This document shows positions 6,140 through 9,138 of a stretch of DNA of 30,506 nucleotides, piece by piece (position 1 is the stretch's first letter; each line of letters starts with the position of its first letter). Origin of the DNA: Candidatus Altarchaeum sp. (lineage in GTDB: Archaea; Altiarchaeota; Altiarchaeia; Altiarchaeales; Altiarchaeaceae); the NCBI GenBank assembly GCA_018260615.1, contig JAGWDQ010000068.1, positions 31,236 to 61,741 on the forward strand, given 5' to 3'. The notes below the pieces were generated by a model. It was not told the DNA's origin, did not search any database, and worked only from the letters and a program-made list of their open reading frames with translations. The translations under genes and the position numbers were made by a program.

Positions 6140-6176
6140 TTTTATTGTTAAATTTTACTTTTATTGTTAAATTTTA
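6140..6176. repeat. Tandem duplication of TTTTATTGTTAAATTTTA (period 19) upstream of pheT
   Basis: Identical 18-mers at 6140-6157 and 6159-6176. Confidence 0.8.
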
Positions 6177-6183
6177 TTTTGAA

Positions 6184-7077
6184 ATGAAAAGCACATCCCA
6201 AATTATGCAGACCAAAGCAATGGAATTGAGCGTTTCTTATGTCAATAAGATACTCGGAATGAAATTTGATGTTAATGAAATTCAAAATTTACTAATAAAA
6301 GCAGGGATGGAATCAAAGATTATTAACAAAAATCGCTTAAATGTCTTTATTCCTCCATACAGAACTGATATATTGCATGAGATGGATATTGCCGAGGACA
6401 TAGCAATTGCTTACGGTTATGAAAATTTTATTCCTGAAATTCCAAAAATCTGGACGAGCGGACAGGAGGATAAATTCCAGAAATTTTGCAATAAACTGAG
6501 AAATTTAATGCTCGGCTTAAATTTTCAGGAGAGTATGTCCTTAATCCTTACAAACAGAGAAAATTTATTTAAGCGAATGAACATTAAAAGCGAATATACC
6601 GGAGATGTCGTTGAAACGGAGAATGCACTGTCAACAGAACACGATGTTGTCAGGAATTATCTGCTCCCTTCATTAATGTCGTTCCTTGAAACAAACAAAA
6701 CAAAGGGCTATCCGCAAAGAATTTTTGAAATCGGTTATGCTGTTGAGGGGGCCTCAAATGAAAATAAAAATTTTCATGAGGTCTCAAAAATTAGCGGAGT
6801 AATTGCAGGCACAAAGACAAATTTTTCCGAAATAAAAGCAGTCGTTGAGGGTATTTTGTTTGGTCTTACAGACAGCGACAATGTGAAAATTTCAGAGGTC
6901 AATAAGGGATTTTTTATAGAGGGAAGGGCTGCAAAAATTTTAATTACGGATACGGAAGCAGATACCGATGTGGGCTTTTTCGGGGAAATTTCGCCTGTTG
7001 TTATAGAAAATTTCGGAATTGAAGTTCCTGTTACTGCTTTTGAAATAAATTTAACTGATTTGTATAGTAACATTTGA
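6184..7077 (+). CDS. pheT: Phenylalanyl-tRNA synthetase beta subunit, B5 plus catalytic-like domains only (N-terminal part absent)
   Basis: PPYRTDILHEMDIAEDIAIAYGYENF (B5 signature), VVRNYLLPSLM, YPQRIFEIG and FIEGRAA. About 297 aa from ATG 6184; the track's TTG at 6145 is probably not the start. Confidence 0.88.
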   Translation: MKSTSQIMQTKAMELSVSYVNKILGMKFDVNEIQNLLIKAGMESKIINKNRLNVFIPPYRTDILHEMDIAEDIAIAYGYENFIPEIPKIWTSGQEDKFQKFCNKLRNLMLGLNFQESMSLILTNRENLFKRMNIKSEYTGDVVETENALSTEHDVVRNYLLPSLMSFLETNKTKGYPQRIFEIGYAVEGASNENKNFHEVSKISGVIAGTKTNFSEIKAVVEGILFGLTDSDNVKISEVNKGFFIEGRAAKILITDTEADTDVGFFGEISPVVIENFGIEVPVTAFEINLTDLYSNI

Positions 7078-7099
7078 TGAGGGATGTTTAAAAATAAAG

Positions 7100-7435
7100 A
7101 TGGAAAAAACAGGAACAAAAACAGATACAGGAATAAAACAGATACAGGAACAGGATTACAAAAAATCATTGTATTCTATTATAAAGAAGGTTGAAGACAG
7201 CAAACACAGGGCAATCACAATTGTAAATAAATTATTGCAGGATTTGAGAGTGAAGTATCCTGACATGAGTGGATTTTCATCAAGAAATTTATGGAATTGT
7301 AAAAGATTTTATATAACCTATCGCGATTTTTCAAAACTGCGAACACTGTTCGCAGAAATTAGCCGGAATAATAATTTGACATTGCATAATTTTTCCAAAA
7401 CTCCAGCCACCGTCTGGAGAAATTATCTGCACTAA
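7100..7435 (+). pseudogene. DUF1016 (YhcG) N-terminal domain remnant, copy 1
   Basis: DYKKSLYSIIKKVEDSKHRAITIVNK and DLRVKYPDMSGFSSRNLWNCKRFY resemble DUF1016_N. The usual YWxIG segment and the C-terminal nuclease domain are missing. Confidence 0.75.
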
Positions 7436-7955
7436 TAATTTAACATCGCTTAATTATAGTTAAACCATTAACTTTTTGCTTTTGAGGTTCTTAATTATTT
7501 AATTGACTAATTGTTCTCAATTATTAATAAAATTATACAAAAATCACCAATATGAAAAACTACAGACACCGTCTGGAGAAATTATCTGAGTGAAATCGGA
7601 TAAATTTAAACTAAAAAAACAGAAATAAAACAAAGATGAAAAAAACAGGAACAAAAACAAACATTGAAATAAAACAAATACAGGAACAGGATTACAAAAA
7701 ATCATTATATTCTGTTATAAAGAAGGTTGAAGAGAGCAAACACATGGCAATCACAACTGTAAATAAATTATTGCAGGATTTGAGAGTGAAGTATCCTGAC
7801 ATGAGTGGATTTTCATCAAGAAATTTATGGAATTGTAAAAGATTTTATATAACCTATCGCGATTTTTCAAAACTGCGAACACTGTTCGCAGAAATTAGCC
7901 GGAATAATAATTTGACATTGCATAATTTTTCCAAAACTCCAGCCACCGTCTGGAG
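7337..7955. repeat. Five 19-nt 8-3-8 hairpin cassettes with constant flanks AAAA...AAATT
   Basis: CTGCGAAC-act-GTTCGCAG (7337-7355, 7873-7891), CTCCAGCC-acc-GTCTGGAG (7401-7419, 7937-7955) and CTACAGAC-acc-GTCTGGAG (7560-7578). Confidence 0.88.
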
Positions 7956-7971
7956 AAATTATCTGCACTAA
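7636..7971 (+). pseudogene. DUF1016 (YhcG) N-terminal domain remnant, copy 2
   Basis: Near-identical to 7100-7435. Confidence 0.75.
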
Positions 7972-8016
7972 TAATTTAACATTGCTTAATTATAGTTAAT
8001 CCTAAAAAAATTAAAG

Positions 8017-9138
8017 ATGGTCACAGATATTGAGGAAGAAGAAAAGGAAGTGGAAATTTATCGCATAAGAAAGTTATTGCAGAACTTAAAAAAAATAAGA
8101 GGGCAGCATACTGCTTTAGTATCCTTTTATATTCCAAGCGGATACAGCATTATCCAGGCATTACAGCAAATTCAACAGGAACAATTTACCGCTGAGAATA
8201 TCAAATCAAGGGTTAACAGGAAAAATGTTACGGATGCACTTGAAAAGACCGCCCAGCATTTAAAATTATTCAAGGTAACGCCCCCGCACGGACTCATTGT
8301 TTTTTGCGGGAATGTATCCGAGATTGAGAGCATTCAAAATATAAAAATATGGAGTTTGGAACCGCCGCAGCCATTAACAATAAAACTTTACCGGTGTGAT
8401 CAGGAATTTATAACCCAGCCGCTGGAAGATATTGTCTCGGTAAAAGATATTTACGGACTGATTGTCATTGATAATAACGAAGCAACGATTGGAATTTTAA
8501 AAGGAGGCAGTTATTCTGTTTTGAAGACAAAGGAATCAGGATATCATGGAAAACACAGAGCCGGAGGGCAATCAGCAAGAAGATATGAACGATTAATTGA
8601 GGAGCAAAGCCATAATTTTAAAAAGTTTATCGGGGACTCGGCAACACAAATTTTCCTGCCTATGTTAAAGGAACTAAAAGGCATAATTATCGGAGGTCCA
8701 GGTGCGACAAAGCTTGAATTCATAGATGAAGGAGGTATGCATCACGAGTTAAAAAAGAAAATCATAGCAGTAAAGGATATAAGTTATACTGATGAGTCGG
8801 GAATCAGGGAATTAATCCAGGTTTCTGAAAGCGATTTGAAGGAAGTGCAAATGGTCAGACAACAGCGCATGATGGCAAGATTTATGCTCGGATTGGTTAA
8901 AGATACGGAACCGGTAAGTTACGGAGAGGAAGCAAAAAAACATCTGGATAGGGGCGTTGTGGACATTTTACTTTTATCAGAGGAGATAGGCGATGAAGAA
9001 ATTGACCGGCTTTATGAAATTGCAAAGAAAAGTAAAACAAGAGTTGAATTAATGCCAACAACTTATGAAGAGGGATTTCAGCTTTATCATACATTCGGAG
9101 GAGTCGGAGCGATATTAAGATACAGGGTTAGCGAATGA
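8017..9138 (+). CDS. prf1: Peptide chain release factor aRF1
   Basis: NIKS, YRCDQEF (YxCxxxF) and HRAGGQS (GGQ) motifs. Confidence 0.97.
   Translation: MVTDIEEEEKEVEIYRIRKLLQNLKKIRGQHTALVSFYIPSGYSIIQALQQIQQEQFTAENIKSRVNRKNVTDALEKTAQHLKLFKVTPPHGLIVFCGNVSEIESIQNIKIWSLEPPQPLTIKLYRCDQEFITQPLEDIVSVKDIYGLIVIDNNEATIGILKGGSYSVLKTKESGYHGKHRAGGQSARRYERLIEEQSHNFKKFIGDSATQIFLPMLKELKGIIIGGPGATKLEFIDEGGMHHELKKKIIAVKDISYTDESGIRELIQVSESDLKEVQMVRQQRMMARFMLGLVKDTEPVSYGEEAKKHLDRGVVDILLLSEEIGDEEIDRLYEIAKKSKTRVELMPTTYEEGFQLYHTFGGVGAILRYRVSE

Follow-up and report, generated by a model that had tools for sequence, protein, structure and literature searches.

Perfect inverted repeats that lie within coding sequence, with both arms translated and the protein bent to fit, have been described in the mitochondrial genes of Nematomorpha, where they are long (up to 284 bp), numerous and spread over many genes of few genomes (PMC6649704). 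A comparable arrangement was found in genes of the DUF1016 (YhcG) family, but here it consists of one short element, an 8-3-8 palindrome, at one homologous position of one gene family in bacteria and archaea. It is described from a 30,506-nucleotide stretch of Candidatus Altarchaeum sp. (assembly GCA_018260615.1, contig JAGWDQ010000068.1, positions 31,236 to 61,741 of the forward strand), termed the window, and from homologs elsewhere; an earlier note on this DNA had described five hairpins in the window and had taken them for an array of alternative coding cassettes. Another process with which the palindrome can be compared is quasi-palindrome correction of the Ripley type, a short template switching. 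Such correction (PMC5453318) accounts for simultaneous complementary changes in both arms and for strict Watson–Crick pairing with no selection on RNA, but it is a mutational process and not an element, and it leaves unexplained both a position and phase fixed across phyla and a link to the recognition helix of a protein. Integron attC sites are alike in that structure is conserved while sequence varies, and in being tied to single-gene cassettes. They differ in lying between cassettes, in having imperfect stems with extrahelical bases and in requiring the integron integrase.

A further comparison is offered by the ParB-parS, Noc-NBS and KorB-operator systems. In these a dimer reads a palindromic duplex of 13–16 bp, to which the DUF1016 palindrome would be analogous, and structure prediction gives DUF1016 a putative helix-turn-helix domain with a modest match to the same fold class. 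A parS site within the coding sequence of spo0J (parB) of Bacillus subtilis was reportedly found by Lin and Grossman in 1998, and the likeness here is that a site is able to lie inside its binder's own gene. In ParB and Noc, three positions of the helix-turn-helix (173, 179 and 184) and one of a later helix (201) determine specificity, R173/G201 in ParB being replaced by Q173/R201 in Noc (PMC7383237), and by analogy the use of a few recognition-helix residues plus a later helix, with an arginine that swaps between them, would be common ground with DUF1016. Unlike ParB, DUF1016 lacks the N-terminal CTPase domain but has a PD-(D/E)xK nuclease domain; in contrast to all three systems, each gene has a palindrome of its own, present once in that gene and situated in codons for the putative DNA-reading surface.

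The predicted nuclease DUF1016/YhcG is very widespread, is often found in restriction-modification loci and on mobile elements, and is listed by PADLOC (PDC-S02) as a candidate for phage defence by a single gene. A full-length paralog from the genome studied here matched the PDC-S02 profiles with an E value of 3e-132. In the passages of PMC9881135 that deal with the family, DUF1016 is reported as enriched beside genes with programmed inversion in restriction-modification loci. Those passages and the PADLOC entry, as far as they go, treat the protein only, and the mentions of DUF1016 in PMC9881135 and PMC4316617 say nothing of a palindrome. A published description of the intragenic palindrome was sought and none was found.

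In the genome studied, no copy of DUF1016_N lacked a palindrome at this codon position, and the stem differed from copy to copy; the types include CTCGCACA, CTGCGACA and GTGCAGCA, and examples from paralogs are CTCGCACAA C TTGTGCGAG and AATTGTGCACGCA C TGCGTGCACAATT. The family at large was sampled as 80 loci from many bacterial and archaeal phyla, 74 of them full-length. Because these were picked by similarity of the C-terminal domain only, the sample is unbiased as to the palindrome. A perfect arm of at least 8 within the 60 nt before a conserved tryptophan codon was present in 47 of the 74 genes, compared with 10 (0.9%) of 1135 control windows taken from those genes and with 0.61 such genes expected when the same peptides were resampled with synonymous codons. 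A real, family-wide element thus underlies the hairpins. Phase and pairing were counted in the 59 of 74 genes in which 8 or more of the 12 pairs flanking one central base are formed. The centre was the first base of a codon in 58 of these 59, and the distance from the centre to the Trp codon was 18 nt in 44 and 30 nt in 10. At distances 2–9 from the centre, 451 of 472 pairs were Watson–Crick, while the innermost pair was complementary in only 27 genes. The mismatches had no wobble bias (6 G.T or T.G against 5 A.C or C.A), and such strict pairing indicates that the constraint acts at the level of DNA, not RNA.

The coupling of the arms was also visible in silent positions. In 41 of 42 genes the third base of a leucine codon (CTN) was complementary to the second base of the codon that follows five positions later: where the leucine codon is CTC the later residue is Gly or Arg, where it is CTG the residue is Ala, and where it is CTT, Gln. 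This is predicted by no protein-level rule. Among 10 disjoint pairs of closely related genes, 10 arm changes were paired and 2 were single, and the arms differed 22 times where 37 differences were expected from the divergence of the flanks. The deficit of arm differences, together with the paired changes, shows that the element is a conserved DNA-level dyad (8 bp + 3 + 8 bp) and no hypervariable segment, and that the dyad symmetry is kept even where an amino acid is thereby dictated. The proposal that this peptide segment is diversified was therefore not upheld, and of the proposal that both arms are rewritten together the constraint stood and the diversifying process did not. It is rare for a DNA element to be maintained within a coding region at a cost to the peptide.

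In the window itself, all five 8-3-8 hairpins were present as claimed (Table 1), each with AAAA on one side and AAATT on the other. The pattern of flanks plus spacing was matched five times (at 7333, 7397, 7556, 7869 and 7933), while 0.02 matches were expected from shuffles of the 30.5-kb window. Each stem can also be read as a 9-1-9 odd palindrome whose centre is the first base of a codon. Read in this way variant 1 is CTGCGAACA C TGTTCGCAG, perfect and centred at 7346 in phase 0, which is 18 nt 5′ of a former Trp codon (7364); it has 8 of 8 Watson–Crick pairs at distances 2–9 from the centre, and variants 2 and 3 have 7 of 8. Variant 1 and the consensus of variants 2 and 3 do differ by three fully compensated pairs, and the translations KLRTLFAEI, KLQPPSGEI and KLQTPSGEI were confirmed. 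The consensus, CTCCAGAC ACT GTCTGGAG, is found in perfect form in another genome of the class, where the gene that carries it (G036:C74) is intact. Folding as single-stranded DNA gave −8.5 kcal/mol for variant 1 (z −4.4), −4.7 for variant 2 and −4.5 for variant 3. The five hairpins count as only three relics, and not as five separate ones, because a 369-nt direct duplication copied variants 1 and 2.

The window was found to hold fragments of a DUF1016/YhcG (PF17761 + PF06250) gene and no complete gene of this family. The PF06250 nuclease domain (YhcG PD-(D/E)xK) had no match on the contig of the window, the five matches in the genome all lying in other, full-length genes; five full-length DUF1016 genes are present elsewhere in the genome, with no orphan C-terminal domain. 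The two truncated 111-codon frames each matched PF17761, over profile positions 38/40–108 of 137 only, with 43.5 and 43.4 bits against a Pfam gathering score of 32.8 bits for this N-terminal match. The 64-nt tandem reported previously (7327–7390 and 7391–7454) was recovered with 75% identity; fragment 1 loses its reading frame in the second of these modules, and variant 2 is out of frame as stated. Variant 3 stands alone in the spacer in a solitary module, and has the ACC centre and a GAAATTATCTG tail in common with variant 2 (repeat family, 94%). The Trp codon, near-invariant in the family, is replaced by CGG (Arg) in variant 1 and by TGC (Cys) in variant 2. The copies of the 369-nt repeat are identical at 356 of 370 aligned bases (96%). 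The locus in this genome is dead, by internal deletion, truncation, loss of the Trp and the 369-nt direct duplication.

Table 1. Positions of the hairpin variants, gene fragments, repeats and flanking genes in the window.
Feature	Position	Strand	Details
Variant 1 palindrome	7337–7355 (copy a), 7873–7891 (copy b)		CTGCGAAC ACT GTTCGCAG; perfect
Variant 2 palindrome	7401–7419 (copy a), 7937–7955 (copy b)		CTCCAGCC ACC GTCTGGAG; one C.T mismatch
Variant 3 palindrome	7560–7578		CTACAGAC ACC GTCTGGAG; one A.G mismatch
pheT (phenylalanyl-tRNA synthetase beta chain)	6145–7077	+	Pfam tRNA_synthFbeta E 7.5e-38, B5 E 4e-21
14-nt direct repeat, left copy	7090–7103	+	AAAAATAAAGATGG; gives fragment 1 its start codon
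369-nt direct repeat, copy 1	7091–7459	+	5′ part of the gene with the modules of variants 1 and 2
DUF1016_N pseudogene fragment 1	7100–7435	+	111 codons, truncated; Pfam PF17761 E 4.4e-11, profile positions 40–108 of 137
Second 64-nt module	7391–7454	+	LQTLSGE-type allele relic, own frame FPKLQPPSGEIICTNNLTSLNYS; variant 2 inside
Spacer between 369-nt repeat copies	7460–7626	+	167 nt
Lone 20-codon module	7530–7589	+	KLYKNHQYEKLQTPSGEII, then stop; variant 3 inside
369-nt direct repeat, copy 2	7627–7995	+	fragment 2 (7636–7971), variant 1 copy b, variant 2 copy b
14-nt direct repeat, right copy	8007–8020	+	AAAATTAAAGATGG; includes aRF1 start codon
aRF1 (archaeal peptide chain release factor 1)	8017–9138	+	Pfam eRF1_1, eRF1_2, eRF1_3

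The history of the locus was followed in three genomes of the same genus (G001, G002 and G003), in which the DNA of pheT is 81–83% identical. In G002 an intact DUF1016 gene of 356 codons lies directly 3′ of pheT; in G003 about 50 nt of the 5′ end of the gene are left at the locus; and in G001 the site is empty, with ~73 nt from pheT to aRF1 and a single AAAGATG just 5′ of aRF1. In this archaeal genus, then, the interval between pheT and aRF1 received a DUF1016 gene, with an AAAGATG(G) junction duplicated on both sides. Since the 14-nt repeat AAAAWTAAAGATGG spans the start of aRF1, the inserted gene reuses a copy of its neighbour's ribosome site and start codon. The 14-nt bracket looks like the target duplication, or the microhomology join, of a single-gene insertion.

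Compared with the G002 gene, the copies in the window have an 87-nt in-frame internal deletion and end about 10 codons past the palindrome. The 5′ part of the fragment is identical to G002 at 191 of 222 positions (86–87%), whereas the 45 nt around variant 1 match G002 at 29 of 45 (64%) and match G003:C94 at 42 of 45 (93%). The latter is a 3′ DUF1016 fragment that follows a thioredoxin-reductase-like gene and whose first codon lies ~8 codons 5′ of its palindrome, and its allele is only 69% like G002 over the 3′ part. As the 5′ part resembles G002 and the variant 1 module resembles G003:C94, the relic in the window looks recombinant, with a junction ~20 nt upstream of the palindrome. Variants 1 and 2/3 thus appear to stem from different alleles, variants 2 and 3 deriving from an allele of the LQTLSGE type and each having gained one uncompensated arm change since; given different source alleles, the compensated arm differences most likely arose while those alleles were live genes, under the DNA-level constraint seen throughout the family. 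The observation that several versions lie at this locus held in so far as the remnants go back to at least two alleles and there are signs of recombination close to the palindrome; a functional store is not indicated. The array is the debris of a dead, duplicated and apparently recombinant DUF1016 gene, and its hairpins are relic copies of the family palindrome; taken jointly with the binding-site inference set out below, this account is reasonably likely.

Fragments that break beside the palindrome were also found elsewhere. A survey of the class (61 genomes) revealed 13 N-terminal-only fragments at 12 loci. Their Pfam matches end at positions 93–118, the palindrome being at ~85–93; none ends before 93 and only about three end later. 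Solitary modules were found after MetRS: this genome has one with a perfect palindrome (C22), and G001 has two that have decayed to 7 and to 5 of the 8 pairs. One interpretation is that the palindrome, or a DNA structure adopted there, would make this spot prone to breaks, short-patch allele exchange and local duplication, and that these events would have produced the debris in the window.

The protein was examined by structure prediction. The model of a full-length paralog had a pLDDT of 86.7, and its C-terminal domain matched PD-(D/E)xK nucleases of the NucS/EndoMS type (Z 10.6). Pfam, applied to this paralog and to the G002 gene, gave DUF1016_N and YhcG_C only, and the ParB N-terminal CTP-binding domain was not found. 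The N-domain alone was modelled with a pLDDT of 96.8. In a VIA-align search of 48,161 representative chains its top four matches were ParB-parS (Z 8.0 over 102 residues), Spo0J (Z 7.5; root-mean-square deviation 2.6 over 90 residues) and, twice, KorB (Z 6.9), with SopB and VirB lower in the ranking; the best Foldseek rows were ParB and Noc-NBS, with TM ~0.5 and E above 0.5. In the model, the stretch encoded by the palindrome is a short helix with a turn, and the predicted recognition helix (GFSxxNLxxM) immediately precedes it. Covariation with the arm bases was measured in 58 genes, with the residues encoded by the palindrome set aside, and the alignment columns most closely tied to them were 77, 81 and 80 (z 16, 14 and 10), on the exposed face of the predicted recognition helix. 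The pairings were R77 with A100, Q77 with G100, Ala or Ser at 77 with R100, and D81 with R96. The apparent arginine swap between positions 77 and 100 is suggestive, in that it resembles the R173/G201 of ParB against the Q173/R201 of Noc. The predicted ParB/Noc/KorB-like fold of the N-domain, the recognition-helix residues that covary with the arms and the fragment breaks beside the palindrome are new here.

These data lend some support to the earlier speculation that the encoded protein might bind the palindrome, in so far as the modelled N-domain resembles the DNA-binding domains of ParB, Noc and KorB. It is possible, although we advance it tentatively, that the palindrome is a duplex binding site for a dimeric protein, probably the ParB-like domain of DUF1016 itself, and among the explanations considered for the palindrome this one ranks first. 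A more specific proposal, which is rather unlikely, is that the palindrome is the cognate duplex site of a ParB/Noc-like domain which it partly encodes. Its right arm specifies residues 96 and 100, which together with recognition-helix residues 77 and 81 would set the DNA specificity. Site and reader would then lie in the same 19 bases and would have to change together, and this sharing would explain the covariation of arms and helix, the private palindrome of each paralog and the yielding of the peptide to the DNA. On this proposal the gene of the nuclease would serve it as a home or self mark.

Several observations weigh against this account of the palindrome and of the array. The protein works without the palindrome, since about one third of the family has no perfect one and in one clade it has been lost. 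Perfect palindromes are present in 8 of 19 relics and in 15 of 21 live genes, a difference that is not significant, and maintenance dependent on function is thus unsupported. Allowing 3 mismatches, the palindrome of each intact gene had no extra copy in the whole genome, and a site that occurs once per genome gives no wider set hinting at a regulon. The fold match is modest for a helical domain (Z at most 8, Foldseek E above 0.5), and the covariation could equally come from a helix–helix contact at residues 96 and 100, which the palindrome encodes, or from common descent. The ends of the fragments are scattered 2–30 codons past the palindrome and do not fall on one nucleotide. The mosaic reading of the relic rests on one 45-nt stretch, and the allele used for comparison has no 5′ part.

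The same features must be weighed under other explanations. It could be that the palindrome is maintained by mutation only, template switching or short-patch conversion of one arm by the other keeping functionless quasi-palindromes perfect. Clustered substitutions are known to arise by template switching (PMC5453318), which has also been proposed for the coding palindromes of Nematomorpha mitochondria (PMC6649704), and strict Watson–Crick pairing without strand asymmetry, paired changes and the occurrence of arrays whose units have different stems would all follow from it. The non-coding MetRS relic is perfect in this genome while its G001 counterpart differs at four arm positions between well conserved flanks, as such a process would predict. 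Note, however, that variants 2 and 3 each keep an uncorrected mismatch and that a G001 relic is down to 5 of 8 pairs. Codon phase and distance to the Trp are constant across bacterial and archaeal phyla, and a position held for so long is hard to understand without selection against the deletions that a palindrome provokes; nor would the process explain why recognition-helix residues track the arms. Mutation alone is therefore an unlikely explanation, if one to be taken seriously. Selection on a hairpin in the mRNA, for stability, processing, ribosome pausing or an internal start, would fit the stable stems and the three central bases, which are unconstrained and loop-like as judged from the innermost pair. 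It is very improbable given that wobble pairs are no better tolerated than other mismatches, that both strands fold alike and that relics outside any gene keep the palindrome. Rfam covariance models likewise gave no match at E values up to 1 in the window between 6800 and 8200. An intrinsic terminator was rejected, the stems on the plus strand running into AAATT with no T-run; the sole flag of a terminator scan was a 5-pair site on the minus strand at variant 3.

Two further explanations treat the palindrome as a place of exchange. Were it a recombination site that moves or exchanges DUF1016 genes or their 3′ halves and is recognised by structure, as attC is, one could understand why all 13 N-only fragments end just past it and one 3′ fragment starts just before it, why the mosaic junction lies ~20 nt upstream, why solitary modules are known and why the gene behaves as a single-gene insertion with a short duplication on both sides. 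The breakpoints nevertheless fall at no fixed base, and the sequence that the insertion duplicated at its junction is AAAGATG and not the palindrome. The locus, immediately flanked by pheT and aRF1, has no recombinase gene beside it; for an integron integrase in particular, the scan covered these immediate neighbours, not the rest of the window, and found none. The stems are without the bulged bases that define attC, and a recombination site is accordingly improbable. Integron attC itself was rejected, the stems being perfect or having simple mismatches and lying inside coding sequence. The original proposal of a working store of hairpin cassettes, exchanged into an expressed DUF1016 gene so as to diversify a peptide segment, had in its favour that several allelic versions stand side by side in the window, that the variant 1 module looks moved into a foreign 5′ context and that fragments and solitary modules recur beside housekeeping genes. 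A working array was not borne out at a locus with no intact DUF1016 gene and with both frames truncated. The palindromes of the relics recur in none of the five intact paralogs; the relics carry a lost Trp, stops and uncompensated mismatches, and variants 2 and 3 are decaying, with one uncorrected mismatch each, and not actively rewritten. The genomes of the genus present plain decay stages of one inserted gene, and family-wide the arms are better conserved than the flanks, leaving a cassette store with very little probability. A silent-cassette system of antigenic or sequence variation was not supported, as there is no intact expression copy at the locus and the palindromes of the paralogs differ from those of the relics.

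Debris of a dead DUF1016 gene, with hairpins that are copies of a family palindrome and possibly of a binding site, remains the preferred reading, and for the window alone it means that a striking array is dead DNA. For annotation it means that recurring short hypothetical genes and hairpin arrays beside housekeeping genes are the debris of DUF1016 nuclease genes. If the palindrome were the protein's own binding site, it would give a direct handle on the recognition target of DUF1016, and would be a natural case of DNA-binding specificity and its target evolving as one sequence.

A number of related structures were observed in the course of the survey. In one locus (L150, G023:C46) an N-fragment runs, ~27 codons past the palindrome position, straight into an HsdM-like end (..LTPGRYVG..), apparently the C terminus of a type I methylase. 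Three intact genes (L047, L067 and L152, in G036:C33, G060:C227 and G002:C104) have two to five extra in-frame QT.S units after the main palindrome, most of them degenerate. On the minus strand of G000:C142:13400–13560 (L014), an N-fragment ends in at least four hairpin units that share a GACACTGTC core and have different, compensated outer stems (GGCAGA, CCGAGA and GCCGGA); this array lies just upstream of a topoisomerase VI subunit B-like gene. Many PDC-S02 profiles (PDLC04794, 04797, 04800, 04808, 04821 and others) span 108–175 positions and cover the N-part to shortly past the palindrome, so N-fragments seem common enough in bacteria to form clusters of their own.

A pattern search of four genomes of the genus returned only DUF1016-linked copies of the palindrome and no new solitary ones, except for a match in G002 (C150:1357–1382). 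This is a palindrome of the DUF1016 type, CTTGCACCA G TGGTGCGAG, that reads KLAPVVRE on a contig with no DUF1016_N match, and it may be another solitary module. A dispersed REP- or MITE-like repeat was ruled out, the palindromes occurring, with up to 3 mismatches allowed, only in their own gene or relic.

Within the spacer, positions 7588–7620, just 3′ of variant 3, match the last codons and downstream sequence of an unrelated gene in G001 (C19) at 94%, upstream of a DprA-like gene, and also resemble the 3′ end of MetRS, as if pieces from the ends of genes had been joined ectopically. G000 has, besides, two families of perfect odd palindromes that are unrelated to DUF1016 (e.g. C2:11575, C70:50627 and C117:26261), namely TCAAAAATGCTT S AAGCATTTTTGA in eight copies and TTACAAAATGTTC N GAACATTTTGTAA in three (one of the three with C for G in each arm), and they are probably the ends of mobile elements. 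Elsewhere in the window, positions 1681–1755 (G000:C68:32916–32990) hold one copy of an intergenic repeat of ~75 nt, of which there are dozens in this genome, G001 and G002.

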